A stretch of 64,000 bases of DNA from positions 29,620,384 to 29,684,383 of the forward strand of contig NC_072740.1 of NCBI RefSeq assembly GCF_026930045.1, written 5' to 3'. Below are positions 14,145-62,589 of this stretch, piece by piece. The DNA is from Uloborus diversus. Taxonomy: Eukaryota. The position numbers and the translations under genes are program-made. Each line of letters opens with the position of its first letter. The first letter of the stretch is position 1. The notes beneath the pieces were generated by a model. It saw nothing but the letters and a program-made list of their open reading frames with translations. It was not told the DNA's origin and ran no database searches.

Positions 14145-14159
14145 GTAAGTTTTTTTACA

Positions 14160-26159: not shown

Positions 26160-26469
26160 GTAAGTTATTAAAATATAACTTATGTTTGGATTTTCAAAAA
26201 TTTGAATTGGTTAAATTTACTGTTTATAGCACATTTACATGCTGTTTTTTACTTGTATGTGTGATGAAAAAAAAGAGAAAAAAAATTTCGGCCTATTAAG
26301 GAGCTTGGAACCCTCTGAAAAAAAAATATATTTTTTAATTATATGATATTTACTTGCCTCTTGTACTTACTCATTCCTACATTATTAAAGATTATTAGAG
26401 AACAAAACAATTTTCACATGAAAAACAAAAAATATTCAATGCAACATTTTGTAATAAGATTTTATTTTT

Positions 26470-39600: not shown

Positions 39601-40744
39601 AGTGGAGAACCTTGTTTGTCACACTAGTTGCAAATGGTAAAAATGCCAACCTACAGGCAATTGAAAGTATGCGGCTTTCATTAAAATTCCAATCACTGCA
39701 TCAAAATATCTATAACAACATTAATTTAAATTTCTGTTGCAAAGATAAATCATATCAATGCAATATCATATTCTTGCATGGACATAGTGGAATTTGACAG
39801 GCTAAAAATAAGTTTTTTTTTCTTATCTAAAATTCATTTTAATATTTTTCTGCTGCTGGGTTTCTTATTTCTACAAATGGCTCCTTTTGCAATCATAATT
39901 GCAAGAAACATAATTTGAGTTCAAGATGTCAAAATTCAAATGATTGCCAGTGGTTGGTATGCTGTTTTTGTCTTAAGAGAATTGTGTAAGGTAGTAAGGG
40001 TCGGGTATGAATAAAGTTGATTCCGTGGGTCTTGGACCCCACTGTCCATGAGCACAGACATGCTCCTTGTCGCCCTGAGACCAAAGGAAATACCTAGATG
40101 TCACCGCGCAGGAGGAAGGGCATATTCACTGAAGCCTGTGTAGGCCCATGGAGCAGGCAAGTTTGCAGTATAAGCATAGAAAAATAAAATCAAAGGAACA
40201 TCAACTACTGTCAAGTGAAAACAATAAGCAATCGTGATTACCAAAAACTGAGAAAGTATTTCTGAAATCTTTAGTAGAGTTCATCAATTTCTAATCTAAT
40301 TTTAAAACTTTAGTTTGAGAAACTAGTTTGTTTCTTTTAATTTTTATTTTGTAGATTATAAATATTCAGCAAAACAACTTTCTTTCTTTAAAAAAATACA
40401 TTATTGGATGTCGGATATTGGACTTCAGCAAATTTTAGAATGGCGAAATTTTGGCACTGGCTGTAGTTGATACATAAAAAATTGTTTAAAGATTTTGTTA
40501 AATATGAACCGTGTAACTATGTCAACAAAGGTGTAAAAGTCATTAATAAATAGGAAAATACTAATGGTTTTTCGTGAAATTTTATATTGATGTATAACAT
40601 GAGACACAAAAATTAGAAAACTCAGAACGTAAACTGTGCATCTACTATATCCAGTTTCTCCTATATAGTTTATGGCACATGTAATGTTTATGTATGCAAG
40701 AATAAAACAAGAAATTCAACTAAATGAAAAACAACCTTTTTCAG

Positions 40745-40879
40745 GCTTGCCAGTTTCATTCTTCTGCTCCAGTGACTTCAATAACATCGTCAGGATTGTT
40801 TGACAGTGATAAAAAGTATATTTTAGTAATAGGTACCACATCTGGTGAAGTTCATCTTCTGAAATATCAACCTACATAG
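40745..40879 (+). CDS. WD40-repeat gene terminal coding exon (ACQFHSSAPVTSITSSGLFDSDKKYILVIGTTSGEVHLLKYQPT*), stop TAG 40877-40879
   Basis: Acceptor cctttttcag|GCT. The frame runs in phase to a stop codon. A downstream AATAAA lies at 41060-41065. Confidence 0.6.
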   Translation, partial: ACQFHSSAPVTSITSSGLFDSDKKYILVIGTTSGEVHLLKYQPT

Positions 40880-41059
40880 TATTTTGTTAAATTTTGATTG
40901 TACTGCTTTGTAAGACATATGCTTATGTTTTGTATGTACTGATTTACAAAAATCTAATTTAAAATATTGCTATGAGCTTCTCTGTTGAAATGATTTATAT
41001 ATTTATGAAAATAGTTTATTGTTTTGTAAAAAAAAAAAGAGTTACTTAATTAAAAAGTG

Positions 41060-41065
41060 AATAAA
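41060..41065 (+). promoter_or_regulatory. candidate polyadenylation signal AATAAA for the WD40 gene 3'UTR
   Basis: AATAAA lies ~180 nt downstream of the stop codon. The genome is AT-rich, so chance occurrence is plausible. Confidence 0.3.
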
Positions 41066-41154
41066 ATGTTATTGAAGCAGAAGAAATTCTTTAATGTGTT
41101 GTAAATGCTAAAGTACTGCAGCTTTTAAGTTTATGTTCTCAGTTATATGCAGTA

Positions 41155-41345
41155 CTAGCCATCTGCGGTGACCAGTTGGTTCGCCCTTTTACGCCATTTG
41201 CCTTTTTATGTAAGCAGCCGCCCACGGCGACTGTTTGACTTGCTTGTCATTCACCTATTCACGCAAAGATTGCTGCCTTTGGTGGCTGCTTAGATAAATT
41301 TGGCACCGGTATTAATCAATATATATCGATTTATATCAATATTAA
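41155..41345. repeat. tandem ~65-bp subrepeats each carrying a GC hairpin (…ttacgcca…gcagccgcccacggcg…); related array at 42845-43090
   Basis: 'agcagccgcccacggcgactg', 'agcagccacctacggcggctg', 'ttgccgacttcggcggctg' and 'ttgccgccttcggcggct' are short perfect hairpins spaced ~65 bp apart. Confidence 0.6.
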
Positions 41346-42354
41346 TTTGCATAAAATATTTTATATTTCTCTCTCTAGTACTGTCCTTTGGAAATTTTCC
41401 AAAATGGAGAGGAACGGGGGCAAAAGGTGTACTCTCAAAGAACTTTCTAACCGAAAGTAACAAAAAGGACATCCACTCTTATGTGAATGCATTATTTTCT
41501 TAAAGTCCGGGGGAGAGGGAGGACATTTACTCTCGTTTAAGTTCCTTAAGTGACGGAATTTCTTTCTCTTACTGACCATCTACCTATATTGATCTCTATA
41601 TTTATCTATCCAATCTATGCACATCTACCTCTGATGTTAATTAACGATCTTTTTCTTTGTACTGTAAGCTCCAGGTTATCCGTGGGTAGCTTATATGTGG
41701 CTTTTCACATTAAAAAAAATTGTTGTTGGTTAACTGCAAATAGATTTTAACTAAAGAAGTGTAAAAAATCACTTTCTCTATTTCTAGACTTTCTCTATTT
41801 ATCTCCTCCTTCTCCCTTCAATGACATCAAATCTTCAAAGGTCACCAAAATCTGACATGTTGAAACCTGATTTTTACATATACACTTCTAAAACATGTTT
41901 CTTAGAATTGAGACAAAATCGCTTATTTTTGGGAACGTCACTTCCTTCAAAACAATTTGGCTTAGAATTAAAAAGTAAGATTTCTTACTTTTGAATCAAA
42001 TATATGGGTCATTCTTCAAAAAGTGTAACTTTTCTGTCACACGACTTTTACTGTAAAACTTTTTAGGAACAATTCATTTAACAATGCTTTTTAATTTCAT
42101 CAAAAATATATCTACTAAATCCTGCCCACAATTTTTTTTAGTAATAGTTTTTATTTTAATATATTTTTGGTTCACAACATATGAAGTCTCACCTCTGTGG
42201 CATGTCACACACCTGGTGTGATTGTTTAACTTGTTTAATTAAAAGTATATTTATTTATTTATTATTCCTATGACAAATGTCTCAAATACTAATTGTTTAA
42301 GTATTATTTAATTGTTTAATATTACGTTTTATTTCATTTTAGTAAGTTATATGT

Positions 42355-44925
42355 TACACAATAAATTCTCACCTCCGTTACCTGAACAGAAAACTCCATT
42401 TCTCATTAACACGTGCAAGTAATGACATCACATTTTATTTTCCATAATGCAAGAGAACTTCCTTGTTTATTTTCAGATACAAAGAAGTTGTGAGATTTTT
42501 GTCGAAAAACAAGAAGATAGATTTTTTTGAAAAACCAAGTGTGATTATTGTGAACTCTCACCTCCGTGAACTTGAATTTCAGGGATGTGAATTAATGTAA
42601 AAAAATAAGTGAACATGTTTTCATATGTTTAACTTGTGCAGATTGTAGCAACGAAGAAAAAAAAAATATTTCCCTGAAAATGTATCCTTTAGACCTATAT
42701 TATTGGAAAATTCCTCATTTCCGTGACAGATCTAATCAATGTCATTATTTCTGAAGTAAAAATAAATGATGGAGGGGAACTACATTAATATTAGGCATTC
42801 TACCAAAATTATAAATTGCCAGTATATTCGCGAATTTATTAACTAGCCGCCTGCGGCGACCAGCCGCTCCGCTTTCTTACGCCATTCGCCTTTCTATGCA
42901 AGCAGCCACCTACGGCGGCTGTTTATCTAACTTGTCATTTAAATTTTTACGTCAAGTTTGCCGACTTCGGCGGCTGTTTAAATAAATTTGGCAGCAGTAT
43001 TAATCAATGTATCTCTATCTTTTGTTGTGCCATTCACATTTTTACGCCAAGATTGCCGCCTTCGGCGGCTATCTACCTTTACGATTTATCTCTAAATTTT
43101 CTTATCCATCTCTATTTATTTTAACCTCCCCGCCCATTTCCTGATAAAAACAAAGATCACTCTAAAAAAAAAAACACCTTTTTTTATTTAAGTAGAGCAA
43201 AAAAAAAAATTAACTCTAATTTGAATTCCGAAACTTTGAATTCAATTTATGTTTTTCGCAATCACGAGTTGCGACAAGACTCTACTGGTTAGAGTTATTG
43301 TTTCTAGAAATGGCTCCCCCGTCCAAGCATGTCCCTCCTCCTGGGTGTTTACGTGTATATAGTTGTGTGCGTGTGTGTGTAGGCTTACGTGTGTGCACGT
43401 AGGCGTGTGTATGTGTGTAAAGGCGTGCGCGCATAGGCAACTGTGTATGCGCATGCGTGTGTAGGACATGGACGCCACCGCCCAGCAGAAGTGGATTCCG
43501 GGGGACAGTGCTCAGGACCAGCCGCGCCGCCGCCGGTGGACGGTGGTGCTACAGGCCTGGTCCAAGCTGAAAAAGGAACCGGATCATCAAGGACTGTCAA
43601 GTGAGAACAATAAGCAATCGTGATTGCTCAAAAAATATCTTCAAAATTCCCCATAGTGTGCAAAAAGTAGCGTTTGACAAAGAAAAAAAAAATCTCTGTT
43701 ATTATTGAATTAAATGTGCATAACTATGAAATGTAACGTAATATAGATGCAGCAAAACGTTGCAGCTTGGGGGGGGGGGACGGAAAAAGAAATAAATGCA
43801 ATCCCTAAATTAAACAAAAAAAGGAAAGAAAAAAAGCAAGCTCTGCCGGAAAACACGCAGTCATCACGTCATAAAATGTAGAAGTAAGCTGTATAGTAAA
43901 AACAAATGATAAACATTGTTTGCAATTAAGATTCCATCGTAAATACCGAATCGAAATACAAGTAGTGACGTCAAAGGCATAAAAGATTGAAGAACGCTTT
44001 TTTCGACTGATGCGTGGAAAGACATAATGTGTTCAGCATTAAAAAATTGTTTAAAAAAAACTATTGCGTATTTTTAAGAACTTTTTTCTTCCGAAGAGGG
44101 CGAAATGGTTTTACTATTGCCAACTTAAATTTTAGAAATGGGGCTTTGATAATTCTCGCAGGATGATATTTAAAAAAAACAAAACCCAGGAAAAATGCAA
44201 ATTAAAGGTATTTTTAAAAATTCATTAAAAATACAAAAACTTCAAATTTTTTTCATTCATCATATTTAAAATTATATCTCCTACCTTATAGTGCAAAAAA
44301 TATTTGTGTGGTGCGATTGGTTCGGGGTCTGTGAGGTAAAAAGTGCAAAAAAAACACATAAAACATTAAATAACTTTTTTTCTAATTAAAATATCGAAAA
44401 TCGAAGCCCGAGGTGCACATCTTCAGCAAAAACTGCACCTGTATACCAAATTTCATCTTTCTAGGCCTTACCGTTTTGTCGGGATGCGCGCCACACACAC
44501 ACACACACAAACATCTTATTTTATTTTATGTATAGACTATTTTTTACATATTTGAACTAAAAGGATATAACTAATCATTAAGCCGTACTTTAATTAAGAG
44601 AGCTTAGTATTAGATTCCCCCTAATCATTAAAATAGCTCATTTTTTTCACAATTAAGTAAATTACTACTTTTAATGTTTAAAAATCGAGGCTAATTTAAT
44701 ATCAGAGTTTTTTTCTTTTTTTTTTAAATTTCTATGAACAAGGTATTTTTAAATTTTTTTTTTTATTTATGAGTAAAATAATTGGAACTTAGCTGGGCCA
44801 ATGTTTATGGTTGTTTCTAGTAGGTAACACTTTCATGTAAGAATTAAAAGAAAACAAAAGATTTCGAAATTGAAAAATATTTGAGTTCAAAAGTTACGCC
44901 TTCTGGGGAATGACCCATACCCTCT
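42355..44925. repeat. dispersed repeat copy B interrupted by a ~1.7-kb composite insertion (42841-44540)
   Basis: The flanks 42355-42840 and 44540-44925 are colinear with 2460-2955 and 2960-3330. The intervening sequence is absent from copy A. Confidence 0.75.
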
Positions 44926-45072: not shown

Positions 45073-45511
45073 ACGATTCAGAATGTTCTCACTTTTGAAA
45101 TATTGCTCTACTCGTAAATGGTACAACATGTTATTAATTTTGAGACACATTCATCACATATATACAATACTGCTATAATTTTCTTACATCGACAGTATTC
45201 TCATTTAGCATAGTGCTTTTACTTAAAATTATAATTTTCATAAAGAACTCTTGAACTTATTGAGATTTACTTGCTTTTTTAAAGTGTTTTTCTATTCTGT
45301 GTAGCTAAGCCTAAATTGTGCTGATTTCTTGTTGTTAAGCCTGAGTGCTCTGTTTAGGGTGTAACTTGTTTATTTTAATTTACTGCTTGTCTTAGGATTT
45401 AGTAATATTTGTATCTTTTACTTCCAATGCTTTCTAATTCTAATAATTAGCATTATTTCTCCAATTTTGTATTTTTGTATTGACTTTTTAAGTGTACCAT
45501 TTTGAGCTAGA

Positions 45512-45970
45512 ATGGGAGTTATACGCATAATGAAGGAGGTTAAAAGTGGTAAAGGGGACAAGTGGATTTCTTGTGACCTATGTCAGATGTTCTGCTTGTT
45601 TAAGGGAAAGGATGAGTCTGAGAAGGATTTCATTTGCACAAATTGTGTTGAACTCTCAGAAATCAGAGTTAGGATGCTTACTTTGGAGGGTGAGTTAGCA
45701 TTAGGCTGTATGCGTGTAGATGGGGTAAACACTCCAGAGGGAAAGGGGGAAGTTAGCAAAAAGGATGTTGGCATTAGCTGTGTGTTAGATAGTGGGAATA
45801 TTCCAGAATTAAAGGAGGAAGTTAGTAAAAAGGATGTGGGCATTAGCTGTGTGTTAGATAGTGGGAAAATTCCAGAGGTAAAGGGGAAAGTTATTGCTGA
45901 GGCGATTGACTGGGAAACAAAGGGTATAATTTTCGGAGATTCAATGGTGCGTGAGGTGGAAACTCAATAG
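45512..45970 (+). CDS. LINE ORF1 N-terminal part: PHD/zinc-finger-like Cys cluster plus internal 60-nt tandem duplication (EVSKKDVGISCVLDSG×2)
   Basis: The ORF track translation reads WISCDLCQMFC…FICTNCVEL. A direct repeat lies at 45745-45800 and 45805-45860. Confidence 0.6.
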   Translation: MGVIRIMKEVKSGKGDKWISCDLCQMFCLFKGKDESEKDFICTNCVELSEIRVRMLTLEGELALGCMRVDGVNTPEGKGEVSKKDVGISCVLDSGNIPELKEEVSKKDVGISCVLDSGKIPEVKGKVIAEAIDWETKGIIFGDSMVREVETQ

Positions 45971-45987
45971 GCAGAGTTAGACGTAAG

Positions 45988-46416
45988 GTGGCTAGATGTT
46001 GTTTGCCAGGGGCTCGGGTGAGAGATGTAAAAAGGGTTGCTGAAAAGAAGGGGGTATTTAATAAAGAGGATGTAGTTACTTTGTGGGTGGGAACTAACGA
46101 TGTAGGCCATAGTAACAACGATGAGTTTACAAAGGAATGGGATTCCCTGTTGGACAAAGCAACCAACTGTTCGGCAAATGTCCAAGTGGTTGGTTTGCTT
46201 CCCAGGTATGGAGTGCATAGGAGTTGGTTAAACCAACGGGCTAGGTGTATGAACCTGGTACTCAAGGAAATTTGCGTTAAGCGTAGAATCAGGTTTATTG
46301 ATGTGTGGAGTAAATGTAAACGAGATTGGATTGCTAGGGATGGCCTGCATCTGAGTTCTACAGGGGTCAAAATGGTTAGTGGTTTGGTTTTAGAGGCTTC
46401 AGAATCAAAAAACTAA
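45988..46416 (+). CDS. LINE ORF1 esterase (SGNH hydrolase-like) domain, frameshifted relative to the upstream part
   Basis: The LWVGTNDV block and an NRRARCMN…DGLHLS-type C-terminus match esterase domains described for CR1-like ORF1 proteins. Confidence 0.6.
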   Translation: MARCCLPGARVRDVKRVAEKKGVFNKEDVVTLWVGTNDVGHSNNDEFTKEWDSLLDKATNCSANVQVVGLLPRYGVHRSWLNQRARCMNLVLKEICVKRRIRFIDVWSKCKRDWIARDGLHLSSTGVKMVSGLVLEASESKN

Positions 46417-46475
46417 GTTGGAATGGGGGACATGGTTTAAGGAGCAGAATTCGAAAGGGTACTAACTATTGGGAT

Positions 46476-47756
46476 TTGAGTAGAAACAGAAATAGGGTGT
46501 CCAATAAGAGTAAAGATTTTAACAGCTGGGATTCAAACAATCGTGCAGCATTAAATAAAAGTAAGATGGGCTTACTTAAGGTTTTTTATACAAATGCTCG
46601 TAGTATTAGGAACAAGATGGAAGAATTGAAAAGCATAATTATAGACGAGAGGTTGGATATTATTGGAGTTACCGAGACATGGGCTACCGAAAGTGATGAT
46701 GATTTATTATCTATTGCTGGGTATAATTTGTTTAGACAAGATAGAGTAGGTAAAAGAGGTGGTGGGGTTTTATTTTATGTCAGAGACACTTTAATTTGCA
46801 ATGAATTGGTAATTAATGATAAACCTAATGAGATTGATATGATTTGGCTGGAGTTGATTAGTAATAAGGGCAAAAAACTACGTTTAGGGAATATTTATAG
46901 GCCACCCAACTTAAGCCAGGGTGAAGACGAACAGATGTTTAGTATTATTAGTGACATTTCTAGCAAGGGGTCAGTCTTCATAATGGGAGATTTTAATTTT
47001 CCAGGAATTGATTGGAATAATTTTGACCGTAGTAATAGCAGAGAAGAGGAATTTTTGAAAGTAATTGGTGACTGTTTCTTAGATCAAATTGTAACTCAGG
47101 GTACTCAACAGGACGCGATTTTGGATCTAGTTTTCTGTGACATGGAAGGCTCTGTTCAGGGGTTATGTGTAGGGGAACACATTGGAGATAGTGACCACAA
47201 CAGTATTAGGTTTGGGATTAAATTTGATATGCACAAAGTAGAGAATTTTAGGTTTGTGCCCAATTTCAGAAATACTGACTTTGTGGCACTTCGGCAGAGT
47301 TTGAAAGCAGTTTTTTCTTCTGGATTGGACAATAGCGATGTGAATCTTCAGTGGGCAGAGTTTAAGGAAAATCTAGCGAATACGGTTAGAGATCATGTTC
47401 CTTTTAGGAGAAAAGGTGTCAACACTAAAATTTGGCCAATGTGGTTCTCCAGGGAAACTAAAGACGCTCTAAATTACAAGCAAGCTGCTTTTCATAGGTT
47501 TAGAGAAACAGGTCACAGTGCAGATAGGCTCCAGTATTGTAAGGCAACGCGTAAATTTAAGTATTTGGTACGGATTCAGAAAAGAGAGTTGGAGCAAAGA
47601 CTGGCAGATAACATAAACAGGAATCCCATGAGGTTTTTTGCATACACTAATTCGGGGAAAGTTCGAAATAGTCATATTGGGCCACTGGTTGATGAGCACG
47701 GAATTTTGATTCAGGACGATAGTGATATTGCTAATGTTCTTAATAACTTTTTTTGA
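46476..47756 (+). CDS. LINE ORF2 apurinic-like endonuclease domain plus linker (pseudogene fragment)
   Basis: A 426-aa ORF contains the EN motifs (IIGVTETW, GDFNFP, DSDHNSI). Confidence 0.75.
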   Translation: MSRNRNRVSNKSKDFNSWDSNNRAALNKSKMGLLKVFYTNARSIRNKMEELKSIIIDERLDIIGVTETWATESDDDLLSIAGYNLFRQDRVGKRGGGVLFYVRDTLICNELVINDKPNEIDMIWLELISNKGKKLRLGNIYRPPNLSQGEDEQMFSIISDISSKGSVFIMGDFNFPGIDWNNFDRSNSREEEFLKVIGDCFLDQIVTQGTQQDAILDLVFCDMEGSVQGLCVGEHIGDSDHNSIRFGIKFDMHKVENFRFVPNFRNTDFVALRQSLKAVFSSGLDNSDVNLQWAEFKENLANTVRDHVPFRRKGVNTKIWPMWFSRETKDALNYKQAAFHRFRETGHSADRLQYCKATRKFKYLVRIQKRELEQRLADNINRNPMRFFAYTNSGKVRNSHIGPLVDEHGILIQDDSDIANVLNNFF

Positions 47757-48245
47757 GTGTTTTTAACGATAACTGTATCTCAACAGTTGACACCAACAAG
47801 GCACAAGCTATAGTACAGCTTGAGGACTTTGTATTTTCCAGGGATGACGTTTTACTTCATTTGAAAAAAATTAAAGAGACTAAGGCTCCGGGGCCAGATA
47901 ATATTTATCCGAAAATTTTAGTTGAATGTGCAGAGGAATTAGCAGATGTAATCGCAAACATTTTCAATGCTTCTTATAATTCGGGGACAGTGCCAGAGGA
48001 CTGGAAGCTGGCTAACATTACACCGCTCTTCAAGAAAGGGTCTAAAGGGAGTGTGGGAAATTATAGACCTGTGAGTCTAACTTCGGTGGTTTGCAAAATT
48101 TTTGAAACATAGATGAAAATTAAGATAGTAAATTTTCTAGAGACTAATAATCTATTGACTAGTTTTCAGTACGGTTTCAGGAAAGGTAAATCTTGTGCAA
48201 CTAATTTATTACATTTCTATGACAAAGTTACCAGTGGCGTAGCTA
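47753..48245 (+). pseudogene. LINE ORF2 reverse-transcriptase N-terminal segment, truncated by the MITE insertion
   Basis: The frame …PGPDNIYPKIL…NYRPVSLTSVVCKIFE…FQYGFRKGKSCATNLLHFYDKVT then runs into the inserted element. Confidence 0.7.
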
Positions 48246-48278
48246 GACCCGACTTTCGGGGGGGGGGGGGGGGTTACT

Positions 48279-48360
<82 letters not shown>

Positions 48361-48494
48361 AATCGCTTGGAATTTTTTCCTTTTCTTCTTTTTTTTCCCT
48401 TTCTCTTCTCTCTTCTTTTTCTCTTTTTTTTTTGAGACTAACTTTTCGGGGGGGGGGGGGGTTTGTCCCCAAAACCCCCCCCCCCCCCCCCCTT
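48246..48494. mobile_element. ~250-bp non-autonomous TIR element (MITE-like) inserted into the LINE RT; carries (AT)n(GT)n and poly-G tracts; flanked by a ~10-bp TSD aaagttacca
   Basis: The left end 'cagtggcgtagctagacccgactttcgggggg…' pairs with the right end '…cccccccttagctacgcccctg' as an imperfect TIR. A direct repeat AAAGTTACCA lies at 48231-48240 and 48495-48504. The RT motif FYDKVT|TALD is continuous once the insert is removed. Confidence 0.75.
48286..48360. repeat. compound microsatellite (AT)~28(GT)~10 inside the inserted MITE
   Basis: Direct reading of the sequence. Confidence 0.95.
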
Positions 48495-49599
48495 AGCTAC
48501 GCCCCTGAAAGTTACCACGGCTTTGGACAATAAGAAGCCTGTAGATGTTGTTTACATTGATTTTCAAAAAGCTTTCGATAAGGTACCGCATGTTGCTCTA
48601 CTTAGCAAATTAGCTGATATGGGAATAGGAGGGAAAACTTTCATTTGGGTAAAAAACTGGCTGACCGGAAGGAAACAAAGAGTAGTTGTAAGGGGAAATT
48701 ATTCTAATTGGAGTGAGGTCTTAAGCGGCGTTCCTCAAGGATCAGTGTTAGGGCCTGTTTTGTTCATTGTCTTTATGAACGATATTCACAAAAATATTTC
48801 TGGGAACATGAATTGTTTTGCTGATGATGTCAAACTTATGGGGACTGTAGAAAATGAAGAACAAGCAAATCAGCTGCAAGAGGATCTAGATCATATTACA
48901 GAGTGGGCTGATAAATGGGGTATGGCTGTTAATGTTGGGAAATGTCAAGTGCTACATTTAGGGCATGGAAATAAGTGTACAAGTTATTATTTGCAAGGTT
49001 CAGTCATTAGTCAGGCAGACAAAGTTACTGATCTGGAGGTCTTAATAAGTCAGGATTTAAAGTTTAGCCAACAGTGCAGCATTGCTAGCAACAAAGCCAA
49101 TAAGATGCTTGGGTTTATCAATAGATCTATTTCAAATAAATCTAAAGAAGTTCTGCCCTTATATAGAAGTTTGGTAAGACCCCATTTGGAGTATGCTGTT
49201 CAGTTTTGGTCTCCTTATCTTAAGAAAGACATTAATGTATTGGAAAGGGTTCAAAGGCGGGCTACAAGGCTAATAAGTGGACTTTCCCACTTAGATTATG
49301 ATTCCAGGCTTAGAAGGCTAAAAATGTACAGTCTTGAGCAAAGAAGAGACCGAGGGGACATGATTCAACTGTTTATATTTATTAAAACGAAAGATGTTAC
49401 GGGGCTAAAGTTTAGCACTGAAAACAGGACAAGGGGTCATTGTTTTAAGCTATTTAAATCTCAGGCTAACATGGATATTACGAAAAATTATTATTTTAGC
49501 AGGGTAGTGGAACCTTGGAACAGCTTACCGGAAGAGGTGGTAATGAGCAAAGGAGTAGACAGTTTTAAGAGGGCCATTGATCTTCACTGGGGATTGTAA
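48495..49599 (+). pseudogene. LINE ORF2 reverse-transcriptase core/C-terminal segment (resumes after the insertion)
   Basis: …TTALDNKKPVDVVYIDFQKAFDKVPH…NCFADDVKLMG…; the stop codon is at 49599. Confidence 0.75.
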
Positions 49600-51559
49600 A
49601 TTGACTAGGACCAGTCTAGCTGGGCCCAGAGCCTGTTGCTGGTCGTCACTTTTGTATTTGTATTATTGGTTACTAATAGTTAAAAAAAATTAAATTAAAA
49701 GTGCTATTAAATTAGCATTCTGACCGAAGGCATTTTGTAAAAATACTTTAAACTCCCGATCATCCGAGAGCAGCTTATCTGTGACCTTTCACACTTACTT
49801 TCAGAAAAAAAAAAACGACGATTAGCTGAATGTAAATAAATGCACACATTTTAACTTAGCAAGTGCAAAATTTTCTTTTTAGACATTCTTATTGCTTTCT
49901 TCGCCCTCCCTTCCAATGTCATTAAACACTTTATTTTGGATGTTTGAAGTTACCTACTGTGATTTTTTTCAGTTCATATGCTTGCACGATTTGCACGTGT
50001 ATGTGTGTAATCTATTTGCAGTAATGAGCGATCTTTTTCTACCTTTTACATGCACTGATATCGTTTTAGCAACAGTTTTAATGTGTGCGAGTGTTATTTA
50101 TCTTTTGAAGCACTATTTGCATACACTAGCATCGTTTTTACCTGATTTGCAAACTATCTGCAATTCATTAACAATCATAAGAAAACTGGCTCAAAGACAT
50201 TGGAAGAAAATTTGAAACTATTTTGTGAAAATTAGGAGAACGAAGAAAAATAAATTGTCTCTCAGAAATAAGCCATTAACTCTTTATATCAAAAAAAAAA
50301 AAAAAAAAAAAAACTGGTGCAGAAACTAGTAGAATAAAAAATAATCACCATGATCATTAATCGGCTCTGCCGATTAATCGGGTGATTACCAATTAATCGC
50401 CCGATTATCAACAGATGATTAATTGGTAATAGGTCTCTTTGCTTATCGTAGCGATAAATTTTATTTTTTATCATAACCCATTGCACTCACTTTCTCTTGT
50501 TAAAATCGCCTATACATGCCATTGCTGTTCTTCAGAGATATCCTGAAAAATAACATAAACGAAAGCTTGTCAAAACTAGTCTACAGAATACACCCAGGCA
50601 TTGGAAGTTGTCCTCCCCCCCCCCCCCTTGAACTATTTCTTCCTTTTTATTTTTTAAAAAATACTGACTCAATTAAAGGTTTTCGATGAACAAATTATAG
50701 TATTAAAGGCACATTGAAAATTAGCTTACAAATATTGAGTATAAACACATTCATAGTGTCTAATACGAAAAATATATTATGTGTAATGAAATATCACTAT
50801 AAAGAATACTATTTTATGCCAATGCTGTTTTATCTATATATGAGGAGTTTACTTTCAAAATGGAGTATATCCACTTTTGGAAAAAAAAAAAACTTTTTTT
50901 GTTTTCAGAATCTCTAGTATACGCCCTATGGACCCAAGAATTTTTTTCTTCTCGAAGTGGTTTATATCTACTGTTAAAAAATGTGTAAACATTGGTTTAC
51001 CACCTAAATGGTGTATATCCATCCTCTTATTTCTCGCCAGGTCTTTTACAGCAAAGTAGAACTTATCCCTTATTTGCCGATATCCACTTATTCACTTTCC
51101 TATCAAAAGGGTACATACTCAAATTTGAATTTGCCACTTCCAGTTCAAAAGTAGTTCACAAATAAAATAGCTCAGCAAGGCATTGGCTGAGCATTTCCAA
51201 TCAAGCATGATACCTGTCTATATTAAGAGATCGCAGCATCTTGCGCAAGTCTGTTAAGGCAAGCGAGACCTCAAATAGTTATTACTGAATTAATATTAAA
51301 TATTTGATATTACTATTAAATTGTGATTAATCAATGATTAAATTGTGATTAATTGTAAACTATTAATGCCTTCAACGTTGTTATTTGAATCAGCTTTTGT
51401 GGTTTCATTGTTCATACTTAATTGGATCAAAGATCCTTTTTTTAAATATTCAATGAAAAGAATAAAGTAAGTAGGATAGAATAAAGTATAGTTAAAAAAA
51501 TATATATTAAAAATGTTGAATATTTTTTTCAATTTTAAAGTTTATTTCTGAAGAAAATG

Positions 51560-52050: not shown

Positions 52051-55000
52051 ATGCAGTTGGCTCTATGTTTAATGACGCTCTATTTAACGACTTTCTCTAC
52101 TCAAAGATGGCTTTTCACGGTCCCAGATGGTCCACTATATTTTAAAAGCATTCTATTTAAGGACGCTTTCTTCTTAAGAACGATTGTTTGTGGTCCCTTG
52201 AAAGTCGTTAAACAGAAAGCCAACTGTATTTTATAAACTTAATGCTTGTATTTTTTATGCATTGGTGAAGTATAACCAAAAATTAGATGTCCGTCAGATT
52301 GGATACTTTCAGCTGAAAAACATTCCAAAAAATGCATAAAATGCTAAAAATGGAATTTTGCATCATTTGAAAAACAATTATTTACAAATAAATAACAACA
52401 CACGCACAATATGGTTTTGCTATAAATTGACTCGACCTTATTATAAAACTCGTTTATAACGAATAAATATTTTCTCACATTATTTAATCCCGAAAAAAAT
52501 TCCTTATACGATAATCCACACAGAACATACTGCATATTGCCACTGATAAATGCAGCTAAGTCCACCAAAACATGTATTCTAATGTGTTTAACTGCATTTT
52601 TTATGAGAGCACCGTCATCAGTTTTGCTTCACGAAACTAAGCTAATATGAAGAAGCAATGTTTATTTATTATTGTTTTAAAGCCTGTTTGGTAAACTACT
52701 GTAATTGAAATCTCATCAAAAACAACCCTGTTGTAAAAATTTCCCCGCCAAGAAAACCTTTAACTTTTCCACACAAAAAAGAAAACCTGCATCCTAAACC
52801 CAAAAACCCTCAGCCATAAAAAGTTATGATATCCAGGTTGCCCGCCAAGTATCTGCCAAACTAGCATCCTCCCTCTTCTCCTTTTTCATCACAGCTACTT
52901 CCATTAGAACCTCCTCCCAACTTCAACTCCTCAGAAATATGGATAGATCTTTTAAATTGTTTATCTTGTTTGGCGGGAAGCTTTTTGCTCACCAAGCAAC
53001 CACTTCACTTTGAAAAGTGTTACTGTGAATAACTGTTACATCTGTTCTAACCTTGCAATTGCAGTCCGAGATAAACAAACCCTATGAGCTGAGAGTAAGT
53101 ACATAAGAATTTATTGAAAATTAGTGATTTTCAAACTTCAATTACTCCGGCCCATGATGTCCCTGGGGGTTGAATTTTTGTATATGTACTCAATGGCCCC
53201 CCCCCCCCCCAAGAATATGTATACAAAAAATCATTACCGTAGCCCCCCTGGGGGCTGTGATAGAACCCCGGGAAGGTACAAATTGGGGGTAAAAACGAGG
53301 GGAGAAGGGGAGGGCGGTCAAATGGCACAAAAGGCACATCAGTAGGGCACAAGGAATGTGTGTGCGAAATTTCAGCTTGATTCCTTTTTTCGTCTGGGCT
53401 GTAGCCGTGTCACCGAAAGCGAAAACTTTTTTGAACAGCGATTTTATAACTTTAATACCTCCTCCCTCTGATGGTCCAGGGGATTGTATTTTGGTTTATG
53501 GCGTCAGGAGCCACTAGGAGATTGAGTGTACCAAAAATCAACTCCGGGGGTCTTCATAGGGCTGAGATACAGAGGGGTGAAAAACCCAAAAATCCTCAAC
53601 TTGTTCTGTCATGTAATCTTGTTCTTGGTCGCTTTTTTCTTTCGCCTTTGGCGGTGAATTTGCCTCTGTTGACTGCTGACGTTTGGTTTCCTTGGCAGGG
53701 CGGGACGCTCCCACGTCCCGTGATCGGTTTACTTACTAGCAATATGTCTTCTTGTTTTCCCGCCTGAATCAGAGTTGATTAATTCGTATCCTTACATAGC
53801 ATGGATTGAATCAATTTCGTAATGTTATGCGTGCTGTAAATAGTTCTTTAGTTTTAAAAGAAGACGCAAAGAAAAAAGTGTTAAAAAACCCTATATTAAT
53901 TTAGAACGATACGTTTCTCTGTTAAATGTTAGTTGCATTAAAAATGAGATAATATTTGTCTTTTTCGGAATATGGAATTTTTAAACGCATGACCACTTTT
54001 ATAATTGAAACTCACTTACTCATTTTTGAGAAATGATTACTTAGAAAAAATAAGTATGTGCATGTTCTCGTTTTGAAGCACTTCATTTTCAACAGTGTAC
54101 ACCATAGTTACTGCTTCAGATCTACACTAATTGCTGATTTTTAGATCTATTGTGCTTACTGAAATCTACACCACTTACGTGCGTAAACAAGTGACCGGAC
54201 TTGTCTTGAAAGAATTCTTCTCTTCTTTCTTTTTGGTGTAACCTGTATTTTCTTGTGTATAATCTGCAGATTATCTGTTAAAAAAGTAAAGTTAATGAGG
54301 TTCAGATTATACGCTGCTGCGGATTATCTGTGATTTTTTCTCGCTACAACAACCCATTGAACCTCAATATTTACAGTAGGATTAACCAAGACACCGTTAC
54401 CGCTGCCTGTATGTTGTTTATTTTACATAGCTTGAATGTCTTTCGCTGCCTATAGGTTGTTTTTTTTACATAGCTTGAATGTTCCTCTTACGCGATTCAG
54501 GCTATGTAAAATAAACAACATACAGTTACGGACGAAGCCTTCATTTGCACAAGATTAGACTGTTTGCTCCTTTTTTTTAAATCGTTTGTCTTTGAGTAAT
54601 TAAGGTACCATAATCATGATTTTAAGGAGAATTCATTATTCTTTAGATTAATTTTGATTATACCTAAAAAGTGATTACTTCATCATATTTTTAATTTAAT
54701 TTTTAAAATTGTATGTTAAATCAAAGCTTTATCTTTTTACATCGTATTGTCCGCGGATTATACGAAGATTTCGTTTTTCTAAGGTATCCGACTACGTTGA
54801 AAAGGCGATTTTCGACCAAAATTCACTTTTTCTCAAAATAGTTTTATTCAACAGCCCCATTCTTAAAGATTATGAAACATTTTAGTTTTATAATCTACGC
54901 GAATTAGAACTCACGTTATAAGCATTTGAATACTAAGCATCTGCAGTATAACGCGTGTTAAGTCGAATCTTTACTTACGTTTTTTGAAGAGTGCAATTAT

Positions 55001-57287
55001 TTCTCGATACTGGCTACGGAAAACATGATTTTGCAAATTCTCTTCAGTATTCAAGCATGAAATTTGGCATGCCTGTCTTGTAAGTACTTGTGAGTGGAAT
55101 GGACCACAGATTATGTAAATGATGAAATATTTTTTGATTTATAGCTTTTTCACCGAAAAAAGGTGACAAATTTTTGAGAAATTTCTGGATTAAGAAACGT
55201 AATTTGTCATAAACCTTAAAATTCTTGAAATATTTCTTAACCTGCGGTCTGTTTCATGTGTAATATTTATACATGTGAAAAAAGCTAAGCAAATTGTTTA
55301 TAGCTAGTTAATTTTTATTAATACAGTGTTTCTCCTAACTGGTAATTTTCAGTCATTTTTGCCAAAAAATCACCCATTTAAAAAAAAATTATTGATATTA
55401 TGGTTTATTTTTAAGCAAAATACATGTTTTAAGATCATTCTGCTTCTAAAAAAACATTAATATTATTTCATAATAGCGTTTTTAAAAAAAACTGCTCCGA
55501 ACCTAGTCGGATACCTGCGGATTACACGCTGCCGCGGATAATGAGCAGGAAAATACTAGTTTGATCTGTTCCAGTTGATTTGTTTGCACTCTTTGCTCGC
55601 ATCTGTGCGTAATAAGTTTGCAAAAATGAGCGAGCCTTTATTACTTTTTACGTAAAGTTTTTACATACACTGTTATCGTTTTAGCTAAAGTTTAAAACGC
55701 ATGCAAGTGTTATTGATATTTTAAAGCCATTGCATGCACTAGTGATAATTTTGAATACCGCCCCTATTGTCACCCCCTCCCCTGTATCACGTTTTATGTA
55801 CCATACAATAATTTTTAACAAAACACAATTTTTATCTGCTTTACCCCTCATTTTAAAATTTCTTTCGGGTAATCCGCGGTACCTGTGTCACCAAAGTCCG
55901 TGAATAATCGGGAGTGTACTGTATATCAGTATTTATTCCGAAAAAAAAAACGTTTTTTGTACACTCAATACCTGTCATCTACTTTTTCGATCTCTTTCTA
56001 AATTTTCTTATCTATCTCTATGTGTTTTAACCTAACCGCTAATTCCTAACAAAAACAAAGATCATGAAAAAACCGTGCGCTTTATTTATTTAATCAAGAT
56101 AGTACAGAGAAAAAAAGATTTGTGCTCCCCATAGTGGGAAAAAGATTTAAAAAAACTCATTGCTTTTCTTGAATTAAATGCAGACAAATATGTAACATTA
56201 AATTAACGCAGCACACAGCAAAATGTCCGGGAGGGGGGGGGGAGGAAAAAGGAATAAAATTCGTAAATGAAAAAAAATTAAGCACAATCAAGCGCTGCAA
56301 TCAGATTACGTGGCCATGATGTCATCGTAAATTGAAGATCAAAAAAGTACGGCTGTGCTCTGCATTAAAAAAAATAATAATAATAAAAACTATTGCGTAT
56401 TTTTGAAAAAAAAAAAAAAATTCTGAAGAGGGTGAAATGTTTTTACTATTCCTTAGTTGTTATTTTTTTCTCGTGTTTCGTGGATACAAGAAACTTTTCT
56501 TTAATGTAAAAAGATGTTAGTTTATGTACACAGTCATCCCATAAAAGATATTGGATGTTTTACATTCATAAGCTTTCATGATTTTGTATTGAAGAAAGAG
56601 CTCTTTGTAACGTCAAAACACATGTCCACAATATTTTGAAAAAAACTAAATTGATAGTTTTAAGAAAACATCCTCGAAACATTATGGATATTTGGTTCCG
56701 TAACGATCCAGTTGGTTTTTATTCATCCAAAAGGAACAGTAATGATATTGAGATATCTGCGAGAGAAAGTGACAAATACTTTACGAAGCTTGTCATAATT
56801 CTTTTGTCTTGCTGCTTAAATATCAGGAAACGTTTTCTTGTGTTGTTCAAAATGCATTGTGAATATGCAACCAATGGCAGTTAGATTTAAATTGCTTAAA
56901 AGAAAAGGGAGCTGAAAACTCTGGTGAGAAGCACACTCGTCACGACAAATAGATTACGATTTCGTAGAAGACTGATTTTCAATGCATTTGTTTAATTCTA
57001 CACAATTAAATTAACACGTCCTCTTGTTGATTCATTGATATTTCTATTCCATCATTAACCTTTACTTTTACTCAGCGGACCACAATTGGCCGATATGACG
57101 TCACTGAAGTTGATAAATCCTAGCTACAGGCTATTTTGATAGTGCAATCTCTTTTGATGGTTATAATTTTGGTTCGTCGCTATAGGCGTAAATTCACCGT
57201 TACTGTTAAATGGTGGCTGTTTTTAACCGTTAACTTTAGTTGGGGAGAGCAAAACGTATACAGTGAGCGCCGGATATTTGAATAAGT

Positions 57288-57880
57288 GATAAAGTGAATG
57301 AGCCGCTTTAATGAATTAAATCTCCGAAAACAAAATGGAATCCAGCTTTAACATTAAAAAACTGTCGAATGATTGAATCAAACACGCCGCTTAAATGAAT
57401 CAAGAGTATCTGAGTAACCATTTTCCAGAAACATGTTGTGCATCAGCGCAGTCTTTTTTTCTGTGCCTTCATTTAGAAAAGTGAGCCTTTTCTTTTGTGT
57501 GTGTGTGTGCATGTGTTTTCCCCCTTTTTTTGCAAGCAGTGAAAAGAAGGGGTTCAGAGCATCTGCTCCCATATGCAGTGGCGGATAAAGTGAATGAGCC
57601 GCTTTAATGAATTAAATCTCCGAAAACAAAATGGAATCCAGCTTTAACATTAAAAAACTGTCGAATGATTGAATCAAACACGCCGCTTAAATGAATCAAG
57701 AGTATCTGAGTAACCATTTTCCAGAAACATGTTGTGCATCAGCGCAGTCTTTTTTTCTGTGCCTTCATTTAGAAAAGTGAGCCTTTTCTTTTGTGTGTGT
57801 GTGTGCATGTGTTTTCCCCCTTTTTTTGCAAGCAGTGAAAAGAAGGGGTTCAGAGCATCTGCTCCCATATGCAGTGGCGG
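57288..57880. repeat. perfect tandem duplication of a ~297-bp unit containing a (GT)n microsatellite
   Basis: 57288-57584 and 57585-57880 are identical by eye. The ORF-track peptides 57378-57572 and 57674-57928 are also identical. Confidence 0.9.
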
Positions 57881-57960
57881 ATTGGTTGAAAAAATCGGCC
57901 CTGGCATTAAGAGATGTAGCGGCCCCATAGCTCTTATAGATTAGTAGGGTGGCATATTAC

Positions 57961-60760: not shown

Positions 60761-62589
60761 ACCGGAATTCTTTTGACATTGGTTTTTACTTCCTTTTAGA
60801 AAAAAGGAAGTATTGTATTCGCGAAAAAAATTTCACTCAAAAATTAACCTTAATTTCCATTTTTCTCACTCCCGAATGAATGTTGAGTTTTTTTTTTGAC
60901 CCGACCACACGTGGATATATGCCGAGGAACGTACAGACACCCGAAATATCTATTTTGACGACCCCCGAGTTAATTACAACGAATTTTCTCGTGACGTCTG
61001 TATGTACGTATGTATGTGCGTATGTGTATATGTATCTCGCAAAATTCAAAAACGGTATGTCCTAGAAAGTTGAAATTTGGTACGTAGACTCCTAGTGGGG
61101 TCTAGTTGTGCACCTTCTCTTTTGGTTGCATTCGGATGTTCCTAATTGGGTCTTTTGCCCCTTTTTGGGGGGAAATCATTGTTAATTTCGATATAAACTC
61201 AAGTTGTCTTATAATTTGTCGGACACTTGGCGATATATCGCCAGTCTTTTGGTTGCCAACTTGACGACAAATTTGGTGATTTTTTTTTTTAATTTGGTTT
61301 CACTTTGGCTACTGTTGGTGATAGTTAGAAAGTAAACAATTAAATCACATTAAAATTGCCAATAATGGGGAAATGACATTAAATTGGAGTAAAAGGAAGT
61401 CATGTGATGCACACATCAGCTCGTTATCAACTTATTTTCTTTTTAAACTGAAGGGCCCGAAACCGTGAGTTTGTACAGTGTACAGAATACTTTATGTATC
61501 GTCAAAAAATGTTTGAAACTCACATTTCGGCGGCCTTTGGCCTTTGTTTTTATAATCTTAATAATGAAGAGCTTTCATACTCCTCAATGGTATTTTAAAA
61601 TTGCATTTTTTAAAATAATTTTACGTAAAAAAATATTTTGTCACTTTTATTCCAATTGTTATAAACAGGGTTGCTGAGAGCAAAAGCAAATCCGGGAAAA
61701 AAATGACATAGGTCAATTGTTTCACAGGCCCCCCTTCTACACCTTTTACATTAGGATACTTTACCCTCTGCACGAGTTTTCCGAGCCGGGCCCCTATTCT
61801 CCAAGTAAGTTGACATGACCTCACGTCAGCCCTCGTTGTAGGTTGCATTTTTTGTCAATTGTCATTTATAAATAAAAGTATCAAAGAGACCAAAAGTATT
61901 TTATCTTTTTTCGACCGCTAAGGTTTCCATGTTTTTTTTTTTTTTTTTTTTTTTTAGATTTATTCATTTATTTTTTTTATTACACCACTAAAAATATATT
62001 GGCAGCTCCAGGGCCCGAATAACTAAAACTGAGGTCCTAGGCCCACATTAATTTGGAGGCCCCATGAAGACTCTGCAATGTTTGATTTACATTTTTAAAG
62101 CACGAATACACTTTTGGAGGCCTCTTTGTCTAATCACACAACTATGTATAGATCACTTATGTGCATTTATGAATCCCCTTTGGGCCCCTTCATAATCGTG
62201 ACCAAGTAAATTCGTTGGTAACCAAGTAAATTTATTTTTAGGGAAATACATGTATTTTTCATATCGGTGCAATGCTATGCATAATTCTTTAAAAAAATTT
62301 AGGCCCTTTAGGAATATGGGGCCCTAGGCCTAGACCGACAGCCTGTGCGGTAATCAGGCCCTCGGTAGCCCTTTTTCAGAAATCCCCCTTGGTGACGGCC
62401 CTGCCTCCCTCCACCCGCAAGCTTTAGCCCAAGCGTAAAGAGGAGCTGAGGCTGTGTTTTGCGAATTTGCGGTACTCTAAACACATGCACGCAAAATTTA
62501 CATTTTGCTGTTAGCAGACAGGCCCGAAAGACTTTGCTGTTAGTTGATCGGCCCGAAGCATGACCGGCCCACCGGGCAAATGCCCGGTT

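Follow-up and report, generated by a model that had tools for sequence, protein, structure and literature searches.

A probable nest of two non-autonomous Helitron-like elements within a dispersed repeat

The 1.7-kb insertion that interrupts one copy of a dispersed repeat probably forms, together with that repeat, a three-layer transposon nest, the inserted layers being non-autonomous Helitron-like (DINE-1/HINE-type) elements. The insertion consists of two nested elements, not of one SINE-like composite, and the modules that a first-pass annotation described as shared with three other loci are full, truncated or rearranged copies of two families. Coordinates refer to the window, the whole 64-kb stretch of DNA that was analysed. 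The nest is most likely no more than the usual layering of junk DNA in an animal-like genome rich in AT. An annotation would best mask the locus as nested Helitron-like/HINE repeats and would not list it as a new class of SINE or flag its GC-rich island as suspicious.

As we envisage the layering, an old dispersed repeat of undefined class would have received a 1.27-kb non-coding Helitron-like element on the minus strand, which would have integrated without a detectable target-site duplication (TSD). A 420-bp Helentron-type element, N1, would later have entered a T-run of this outer element, its GC-rich body being presumably incidental. Both elements appear to encode nothing and, judging from their family, would have been moved in trans by a Rep/helicase transposase from elsewhere; no Rep/helicase (RepHel) ORF lies within the window. 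In such a mechanism, also taken from the family, Rep would nick the 5′ end, the helicase would peel off one strand, the 3′ hairpin and terminal motif would signal termination, and a single-stranded circle would integrate at an AT- or T-rich site with no duplication.

Insertion site and architecture of the outer element

The host repeat has an uninterrupted paralogue (copy A, 2416–3312) and an interrupted copy B, whose left half spans 42315–42845 and whose right half spans 44537–44917, with no strand assigned to either. By self-BLAST within the window, 42315–42845 is 79% identical to 2416–2967 of copy A, and 44599–44917 is 77% identical to 3009–3310. In the junction alignment, copy A is unbroken across the site (…TTTACTAAATA joined directly to CTATTTTTT…); copy B is broken between 42845 and 42846 and its homology to copy A restarts at 44537 (CTATTTTTT…). 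The insertion therefore spans 42846–44536, or 42843–44536 if CTAG belongs to the element, which gives a length of 1,691–1,694 bp with a left edge uncertain by 3 bp. The first-pass annotation had placed an insertion at 42841–44540 and had described copy A as uninterrupted there, and both statements stand, with these measured limits. At its empty site, copy A lines up with both flanks without the gain or loss of a base, leaving at most a 3-bp CTA ambiguity, and no TSD is seen there in the junction alignment. The sequences flanking the outer element, AATAG on the left and TTAATAAA on the right, are AT-rich, lack a TSD and are not of the T^T type.

The outer element (element B, 42843–44536, minus strand) is 1,694 bp long, or 1,274 bp minus the nested element. 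Its limits are set by the empty site in copy A and by the same two termini in a second copy with unrelated flanks (copy C, 18800–20067). Read along the minus strand, the order is 5′-TC, (GT)n, core, a non-coding stretch of about 1 kb, four tandem palindrome repeats, a terminal hairpin with CTAG, then T. The 5′ terminal TC (TCTATACATAAAAT…; 44535–44536, minus strand) is the point at which homology between B and C begins (TCTATACAT in B, TCACTGTATAT in C), beyond which the flanking DNA is unrelated. The (GT)n microsatellite of the 5′ block (44492–44513, minus strand), replaced by (GTTT)n in copy C, aligns to the GTMY microsatellite of H2, a canonical HINE elsewhere in the window. It is followed by a conserved core (44425–44491, minus strand) that contains CCTAGAAAGATGAAATTTGGTA at 44446–44467 and that we take to resemble Drosophila DINE-1. 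Further along, the alignment of copies (columns ~1220–1235) contains a CRE-like palindrome, TGACGTCA (43966–43973, no strand), which is kept in B and C and has the form TGATGTCA in fragment D.

On the 3′ side of element B, four tandem subrepeats (‘central repeats’, 42846–43083, minus strand) with spacings of 59, 55 and 95 bp carry one GC-rich palindrome each, at 42846, 42905, 42960 and 43055; the best of these fold with z = −3.3 and −2.3. At the 3′ terminus (42843–42861, minus strand), the palindrome GCCGCAGGCGGC is followed by (C)TAG and a flanking T, and this terminal hairpin alone folds no better than shuffles (z = −0.35). The same end, GCTAG before a T, is common to element B (42843), fragment E (41155) and copy C (20064–20067), with unrelated flanks in each, and the 3′ flanking base of the family is thus T in 3/3 copies. 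The 5′ flanking base, read from two junctions only, is G in B and T in C. Comparison of the ends of B and C gave no significant subterminal inverted repeats (subTIRs), the best match being 7/8 nt (shuffle p 0.26–0.99); since the copies are old, such repeats may have been lost by decay.

Copy C is full length (1,268 bp, plus strand) and lacks the nested element; its BLAST blocks are 70–78% identical to B, and global identity between the two is 67%. This complete second copy, a minus-strand match to B, had been overlooked in the first-pass annotation. Fragment D (55955–56450, minus strand) is internal only, with neither terminus and no nested element, and accounts for an earlier observation that a module beginning tctaaattttcttatc…, together with the DNA downstream, recurs at 55980–56460 without the GC-rich block; we find it at 55977–56450. 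Fragment E (41155–41335, minus strand) is a 3′ end of the family, with palindrome repeats and a CTAG terminus. The hairpin subrepeats seen earlier at 41155–41345 are this fragment, 41154–41330 matching 42842–43018 at 78% identity by self-BLAST. The palindrome GCCGCCKWMGGCGGC, at two or fewer mismatches, occurs 5 times in the window against an expected 0.02, always within the arrays of E and B. Subrepeats at 49980–50200 and 55590–55760 that had been called analogous turn out to form a separate repeat family (49954–50140 and 55556–55745, ~70% mutual identity), unrelated in sequence to the hairpin repeats.

Palindromes in C and E are worn by CpG-to-TpG/CpA changes, and the observed/expected CpG ratio (CpG o/e) is 0.61 in C versus 1.2–1.4 in B. 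C and E are older copies and behave as relics. The outer family is represented by two full and two partial copies and the N family by two copies, 22–33% diverged, and the termini and target preferences given here for both families are drawn from very few junctions.

The nested GC-rich element and its relative

N1 (43210–43629, minus strand) is a 420-bp element of Helentron type, HINE-like, that is absent at the same point in C and D. Its insertion point lies inside an A-run (plus strand) of the outer element, which the alignment shows to be uninterrupted in both other copies. Overall, the GC fraction of N1 is 0.51; it reaches 0.59 in the body and 0.65 at 43460–43580. A GC-rich island had been remarked on before, and 43281–43660 indeed contains the highest 150-bp GC of the window (0.66 versus 0.33 overall). 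Besides this unique GC-rich segment, N1 contains a GT-rich low-complexity stretch; it has no tandem central repeats.

The ends of N1 have the subTIR geometry of a HINE, with a stem-loop after the 3′ repeat. The 5′ subTIR, palindromic GCAATCACGATTGC (43614–43627, minus strand), belongs to what we call the shared tail and lies 2 nt from the end, beside a T6 flank. Its 3′ counterpart, GCAACTCGTGATTGC (43258–43272, minus strand), lies 47 nt from the 3′ terminus. These repeats are 14–15 nt long and palindromic, and when the two ends of N1 are locally aligned to each other, the shuffle p is ~0.001. Between the 3′ subTIR and the terminus sits a stem-loop, TTGAATTC, a 9-nt loop and GAATTCAA (43217–43249, minus strand; 8-bp stem and loop at 43221–43245). 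Folded as DNA, 43211–43275 reaches −11.6 kcal/mol (z = −4.0), a value equalled by 0/200 shuffles. On its own strand N1 is flanked by T6 and T11, where the uninterrupted copies C and D have T7–8, which fits T^T insertion with element-borne Ts, a TSD of ~8 bp or an insertion of poly(A) type. We rejected a hAT-type or other TIR MITE for N1 because its inverted repeats are subterminal and none is formed by the true termini.

N2 (39868–40243, minus strand) is another member of the N family, a rearranged or partial copy whose body is unrelated to that of N1. Its 5′ module (40190–40243, minus strand) shows a T5 flank, GG, then TAATCACGATTGC, and its 3′-type module (39889–39944) is in the opposite orientation to the 5′ module. 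At 40195–40243, the shared tail represents the 5′ end of N2; the recurrence of the tail, noted before at 40195–40235, amounts to 32/33 identical bases at 40207–40239. On the plus strand, both copies end …GATTRC(Y)C, then A5–6. The architecture of N1 is not repeated in N2, its only other copy, in which the 5′ module is common and the 3′-type module is inverted, and the family structure given here is therefore provisional. The tail pattern had no matches in viral contigs or in metagenome contigs (0 in each). A bacterial origin of the GC-rich bodies was rejected, as no plasmid similarity was found for them.

The idea of exchangeable GC bodies thus survives in part: the GC-rich family has conserved ends and unrelated bodies, but the outer element does not swap, its GC-rich block being a nested element. 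In translation, N1 and N2 both read FL(E/Q)MAP… at one end and …LSSENNKQS followed by a stop at the other. A coding reading of N1/N2 was rejected, as the frames do not join and contain no Pfam domain; long ORFs of N1, N2 and B alike gave no Pfam domains.

A canonical HINE in the window and the conserved core

H2 (60784–61445, plus strand), with T-runs at both ends, serves as a canonical HINE reference inside the window. On the plus strand it has a 5′ subTIR (60787–60797) and its inverted repeat (60802–60812), a perfect 11 nt, then a GTMY microsatellite (~61000–61036), the core (61061–61082), a 3′ subTIR (61391–61401, 10/11) and a palindrome (61405–61418). The 5′ hairpin folds with z = −5.2, and the subTIR test gives p ~0.02. 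The microsatellite-plus-core block of element B matches that of H2 (60995–61082) at 54/73 positions (74%); by self-BLAST, 44444–44477 is 91% identical to 61082–61049.

The core extends beyond this genome. At least 120 metagenome contigs contain a 21-mer from it, for the most part within tandemly arranged units of ~292 bp, and these units are identical at 47/62 positions to the CL1 monomer of C. gigas Cg_HINE (Repbase Helitron-N55_CGi). Over 21–23 nt, the core CTAGAAAGWTGAAATTTGGTA recurs unchanged in unrelated repeats of a different host and can be recognised in the Cg_HINE monomers of the oyster. The core-bearing metagenome loci have nothing else in common with the window, the oyster CL1 monomer matches the window through poly-G only, the core pattern occurs in 0 viral contigs, and the DINE-1/HINE supplementary files (mite/Drosophila) are without the motif.

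As seen from this locus, the genome has three or more coexisting HINE-type families, one of which combines the HINE core with TC…CTAG ends in the style of Helitrons. If confirmed genome-wide, this core–terminus pairing would bear on the exchange of terminal and internal modules between the two Helitron-like groups and on the keeping of a ~22-nt core across distant hosts. A bolder proposal, which we think unlikely, is that the outer family is a transposition-competent HLE1/HLE2 hybrid, with the canonical termini TC…hairpin-CTAG before T joined to a HINE microsatellite-plus-core 5′ region. Were this so, it would imply module exchange between HLE1 and HLE2 lineages or, alternatively, an unrecognised intermediate terminal type, and the 21–23-nt core would be a deeply conserved cis-acting signal.

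Rival readings and comparison with known systems

The first-pass annotation took the insertion for one of a modular, SINE-like family. The modular part holds, in that these are non-autonomous mobile DNAs whose pieces recur with reproducible boundaries; a SINE-like, LINE-dependent nature does not. In full, this reading would have a LINE-mobilised family on the plus strand with a hairpin 5′ head, exchangeable GC bodies and a LINE-recognised 3′ tail, and we consider it very improbable. On the plus strand, the outer element does have (CA)n or (ACAA)n at its 3′ end, as in some CR1/L2-dependent SINEs, the window contains a CR1-type LINE, and N1 and N2 have a common tail followed by a short A-run. 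Against this, the empty site is without a TSD, and neither a tRNA, 5S or 7SL head in the elements (ARAGORN, Rfam) nor a Pol III box A or box B in 39800–44600, for which a check had been suggested, was found. An ARAGORN scan returned 0 tRNA genes, Rfam gave 0 matches over the whole window at the gathering threshold, and a permissive Rfam scan of 39700–44700 (E-value limit 5) produced chance-level miRNA/sRNA hits only. A match between the 3′ tail and a LINE 3′ end had also been suggested as a check, and neither of the two tails is similar to the 3′ ends of the three CR1-type LINE copies. The resident LINE ends in a stem-loop and TTTGTA repeats; a search with its reverse transcriptase brought up CR1 relatives only (~50–59% identity; birds, turtles, metagenomes) and nothing nearly identical, and a search with concatenated putative WD40-like exons had no matches. 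Moreover, a SINE of 1.27 kb would be a long one, the GC-rich block was inserted as a nested element and is not a swapped body, and the microsatellite-plus-core block is homologous to a canonical HINE 5′ block. A different origin for the outer element, as a cut-and-paste MITE of the pearl/DTC84/mini-me type with a DDE transposase and a 2–3-bp TSD (AA/TT or CTA), is in our judgement improbable, if somewhat less so. The modular layout equals that of pearl/DTC84 (PMC3879986), and the junctions may carry CTA as a 3-bp direct repeat; but B and C are without terminal or subterminal inverted repeats, CTA as a TSD needs a 3-bp deletion relative to copy A where the reading without a TSD is collinear, and MITE-like families of this sort were later reclassified as HINEs derived from Helentrons (PMC4067079; PMC7492417).

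For N1 the competing origins concern its GC-rich body. It could be a retroposed RNA or short SINE-like sequence on the plus strand, with an A-tail, an A-rich TSD and a GC-rich transcript or foreign body, an origin we regard as doubtful. The A-run of 11 + 6, roughly double the 7–8 in C and D, would suit it, as would the ending …GATTRC(Y)C before the A-run in both N copies and a composition that looks young or foreign (CpG o/e ~0.9 and 59% GC, versus 0.58 and 33% GC for the genome). A retrocopy, however, has no reason to carry significant inverted-repeat ends in HLE2 geometry with a stem-loop, no known RNA family or protein domain is found in N1, and Helentron-type elements have variable terminal Ts and target T-runs (PMC4067079). 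Assembly chimerism or contaminant DNA, which a unique body and the highest 150-bp GC in the window might suggest, is extremely improbable: the ends of the block belong to a repeat family with a second member 3.4 kb away, the block sits in an A-run with the outer element resuming in register on both sides, and no plasmid similarity and no viral or metagenome matches to the tail are found. We retain the nest of Helitron-like elements as the preferred explanation of the whole insertion.

Set beside known groups, the elements resemble CR1/L2-mobilised SINEs in being short to medium in size, non-coding and dispersed, with a microsatellite at one end and a CR1-type LINE nearby. They are unlike them in having no Pol III head, TSD or LINE-shared tail, and in having hairpin-plus-CTAG and subTIR termini instead.

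DINE-1/HINE elements consist of a 5′ block with microsatellite, a core, variable central tandem repeats and a 3′ stem-loop, and have no ORF and no TSD (PMC2374699; PMC4067079; PMC7492417; PMC3879986). In HINEs the subTIRs lie 2–4 nt from the 5′ end and 38–60 nt from the 3′ end, and in Helentron-type elements the number of terminal Ts varies and T-runs are the targets (PMC4067079). Families described as pearl/DTC84/mini-me-type MITEs, now placed among Helentron-derived HINEs (PMC4067079; PMC7492417), include pearl/DTC84, which is laid out as flank, palindrome core repeats, a tetranucleotide-type microsatellite and flank (PMC3879986). The outer element is like this group (including mini-me, SGM, pearl, DTC84 and Cg_HINE) in being non-coding and without a TSD, and in its GT-type microsatellite near the 5′ end, its core, its palindromic central tandem repeats and its 3′ stem-loop. 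It differs in having no detectable subTIRs or 5′ inverted repeat, in its ends (TC…CTAG, not T-runs), in a 5′ block of only 27 nt before the microsatellite, and in a core-to-repeats spacer of ~1 kb that is conserved, whereas that of Cg_HINE is 10–500 bp and variable. Because it has no significant subTIRs, it falls outside the HINE subTIR range (11–15 nt) and the definition of HLE2, which asks for terminal inverted repeats of 11–18 nt, a stem-loop following the right-hand repeat, and T^T insertion (PMC11417382). N1 and H2 are like DINE-1/HINE in their stem-loop, in their T-run flanks and in the position of the subTIRs, 2 nt in from the 5′ end and ~45 nt in from the 3′ end, although N1, unlike that group, has no tandem central repeats.

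Canonical Helitrons (HLE1, such as Helitron-N) are defined by 5′-TC, a short 3′ hairpin and a CTRR suffix, and detection tools that rely on motifs as short as TC and CTAG give many false positives (PMC11417382). The outer element starts with TC and ends in a GC-rich hairpin and a CTRR suffix (CTAG in B, C and E), the hairpin being eroded in C and E; it is flanked by T on the 3′ side in 3/3 copies and has no TSD and no ORF, all as in canonical Helitrons. These differ from it in a 5′ flank of A, where the outer element has G or T, and in a hairpin that stands ~10 nt before CTAG, where that of the outer element adjoins it. Unlike HLE1, the outer element also carries a DINE-1/HINE-type block, normally an HLE2 feature.

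Structure of the insertion and its outer element

The window has a GC content of 33% and a CpG observed/expected ratio of 0.58, and interspersed repeats, among them a CR1-type LINE, are abundant; its appearance is that of a eukaryotic genome of invertebrate type. Self-BLAST of the window identifies an intact copy of the dispersed host repeat (copy A, 2416–3312) and a second copy split in two (42315–42845 and 44537–44917), with approximately 78% identity. Across the junction, copy A reads …TTTACTAAATA directly followed by CTATTTTTT…, and the split copy reads …TTTATTAACTA, then the insert, then CTATTTTTT…. Alignment of the two places the insert at 42846–44536, or 42843–44536 if CTAG is counted as element, essentially the interval proposed in the first-pass annotation (42841–44540). 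No target-site duplication is visible at the insert relative to the copy A junction, which leaves a 3-bp CTA ambiguity.

Aligning this copy (B) with its relatives in the window defines a non-coding outer element of 1,274 bp. Self-BLAST and alignment reveal a full second copy, C, on the minus strand at 18800–20067; the alignment also includes fragments D (~55955–56450) and E (41155–41335). The first-pass annotation missed copy C. Two other parts of it are confirmed: the hairpin repeats at 41154–41330 (self-BLAST and palindrome pattern count) and the module without the GC-rich block at 55977–56450 (self-BLAST and alignment). The termini are reproducible: B, C and E have the plus-strand end …ACTAGCC in common although their flanks are unrelated, and the opposite end (B, …TTTTATGTATAGA; C, …TTTTATATACAGTGA) is common to B and C. 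The element has a defined polarity. Read on the minus strand, it starts with 5′-TCTATACATAAAAT… and continues with a (GT)n microsatellite (44492–44513; (GTTT)n in C), a core with CCTAGAAAGATGAAATTTGGTA (44446–44467), a non-coding stretch of approximately 1 kb and four tandem repeats, each with one GCCGCCNNNGGCGGC-type palindrome, before ending in …GCCGCAGGCGGCTAG, followed by T in 3/3 copies. All of the repeated palindromic units closely match the terminal hairpin; we speculate that they may have originated by terminator read-through or slippage. A CRE-like palindrome, TGACGTCA at 43966–43973 in B and ~19400 in C and TGATGTCA at ~56315 in D, is kept in these copies despite approximately 30% divergence of the outer element, and a second, degenerate one lies nearby in B and in C.

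Copies C and E are CpG-decayed, with palindromes GCCGCC…GGCGGC turned into GTCACC…AGTGGC, as expected for relics without selection in place. The CpG observed/expected ratio is 0.61 in C, 1.2–1.4 in B and approximately 0.9–1.0 in N1, the element nested in B. With ratios above those of C and the window, B and N1 either postdate C by a wide margin or escape CpG decay.

The nested element N1 and its family

The exceptional GC content first noted in the insert is borne out at 43281–43660 by the GC profile of the window. Among B, C and D, an extra 420 bp (N1, 43210–43629) is present in B alone and sits inside an A-run, with 11 and 6 adenosines beside N1 compared with 7–8 in C and D. The GC-rich island is therefore a separate element inserted into the outer one and does not represent an interchangeable body within a 1.7-kb unit, as first suggested. 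On the minus strand, N1 opens where a T6 run abuts GA-GCAATCACGATTGC, whose palindromic repeat lies 2 nt in from the terminus, and closes with GCAACTCGTGATTGC, a stem-loop (TTGAATTC, 9 nt, GAATTCAA), 11 nt and a T11 flank. Its inverted repeat is significant (shuffle p ~0.001), and the stem-loop folds with z = −4.0.

The tail ctgtcaagtga.aacaataagcaatcgtgatt that had been noted in the insert corresponds, when read in reverse, to the family's 5′ end, and its recurrence at 40207–40239 is confirmed (32/33 bases identical). It belongs to a second member, N2 (39868–40243), which has the 5′ module of N1, a T5 flank and the 17-nt motif TTTCTASAAATGGCTCC common to both. The 3′-type module of N2 (39889–39944) lies in the opposite orientation and its body is unrelated to that of N1. 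In this family of two copies, N2 may be either a rearranged member or a pair of fragments. Neither body contains a Pfam domain, an Rfam family or plasmid similarity.

Neighbouring repeats and a possible gene

The CR1-type LINE spans 45500–49660 (+), with fragments at 20431–21443 (−), 23337–24342 (−) and 22365–22870 (+). By eye, its ORF1 has the appearance of an SGNH/GDSL-type esterase; there is also an endonuclease-like region, and the reverse transcriptase, which shares approximately 50% identity with the CR1 enzymes of birds and turtles, is broken at 48280–48470 by (TA)28 and a low-complexity insert. The 3′ end carries a stem-loop and TTTGTA repeats, and several 3′ fragments lie near, one of which (23337–24342) is 95% identical to 49664–48670. 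An inverted duplicate pairs 20934–21567 with 22878–22241 (95%).

A MITE-like pair of ~500 bp (16149–16650 and 54231–54762, ~66% identical) is bounded by inverted repeats of ~30 bp with ends CYGTATTTTCCTSCATAT…; the latter copy has a 43-bp tandem duplication at 54401–54482. The ‘analogous subrepeats’ of the first-pass annotation (49954–50140 and 55556–55745) form a separate family by self-BLAST, whose member at 55505–55890, adjoining fragment D, apparently has CCTGCGGATTAC and GTAATCCGCGG at its ends as imperfect inverted repeats. At 57288–57882, a 296-bp unit is perfectly (100%) duplicated in tandem, either very recently or as an assembly artefact. The G-skewed region 7000–9100 (~38–42% GC) holds diverged internal repeats of ~450–850 bp and long poly-G runs; 8207–8457 matches 62613–62882 at 77%, and comparable poly-G or poly-C stretches are found in many of the window's repeats. 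Stop-free WD40-like stretches at 14018–14188, 25872–26168 and 40740–40880 (+) look like exons of a plus-strand gene with repeats in its introns; a query concatenating them found no homologues.

Origin and relationship to known elements

The first-pass annotation favoured a SINE-like origin. A LINE-dependent SINE is disfavoured here, as Rfam and tRNA searches found no Pol III head, there are no Pol III A/B boxes in 39800–44600, the insert junction has no target-site duplication and neither tail resembles the 3′ end of the resident CR1-type LINE. A DDE-type tandem-repeat MITE, an older name for the same architecture, lacks support, with no terminal inverted repeats in the outer element. The doubled A-run would suit a retroposed origin for N1 alone, which we consider improbable. 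That the GC-rich block reflects contamination or chimerism is very unlikely given the alignment of B, C and D and the comparison of N1 with N2. On the favoured Helitron-like reading, and going by what is known of the family, the outer element and N1 would be mobilized in trans by a Rep/helicase transposase, with or without an endonuclease: Rep would nick the 5′ end, the helicase would unwind the strand, the 3′ hairpin and terminal motif would halt the reaction, and a single-stranded circle would integrate into AT- or T-rich DNA without duplication.

Metagenome contigs from JGI, at least 120 in number (L001–L120) and many of them host-associated, also contain the core 21-mer CTAGAAAGTTGAAATTTGGTA, mostly as part of ~292-bp units in tandem arrays (for example, L003 4158–5354); these contigs have no other sequence in common with the window. 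The unit is identical at 47/62 positions to the Cg_HINE CL1 monomer of C. gigas, itself a match to Repbase Helitron-N55_CGi. These matches suggest that a short core is conserved across distant hosts. The core is probably also similar to the sequence that follows the GTCY microsatellite in Drosophila DINE-1 and in lepidopteran MINE-type repeats.

N1 agrees with Helentron-associated interspersed elements (HINEs) in the distance of its subterminal repeats from the termini (3′, 47 nt, published 38–60; 5′, 2 nt, published 2–4) and, as in mite, mosquito and oyster HINEs, in its T-rich flanks (PMC4067079; PMC7492417; PMC11417382). Conserved ends around unrelated interiors, as in N1 and N2, are normal for non-autonomous Helitron-like elements (PMC7492417; PMC2374699).

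The ends of the outer element in B and C fit the description of canonical Helitrons, 5′-TC and a hairpin plus CTRR (PMC11417382), except that the base preceding the 5′ end is G or T where A would be expected. Internally, its features follow the order seen in DINE-1/HINE/pearl-type elements: microsatellite, conserved core, variable palindromic central tandem repeats and 3′ stem-loop (PMC2374699; PMC4067079; PMC7492417; PMC3879986). As an internal reference we used a textbook HINE at 60784–61445 (+), which has T-run flanks at its 5′ and 3′ ends. Between them lie an 11-nt 5′ subterminal inverted repeat (subTIR) that folds with its inverted repeat into a hairpin (z = −5.2), a GTMY microsatellite, then the core, a 10/11 3′ subTIR and a palindrome. 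Its microsatellite-plus-core block is identical to that of B at 54/73 positions, so the link to HINEs exceeds architecture. No significant subTIRs were found in B and C. The only mildly unusual point is a HINE-type core in an element with canonical Helitron-style ends, the meaning of which depends on genome-wide copies. Taken as a whole, the locus amounts to nested transposon debris of an ordinary sort, and its families are additional cases of known element types. Because the outer family combines the ends of the canonical Helitron group (HLE1) with a HINE interior and lacks the HINE subTIRs, we class it as Helitron-like and non-autonomous, with a DINE-1/HINE-like build, and as a strict member of neither subgroup.
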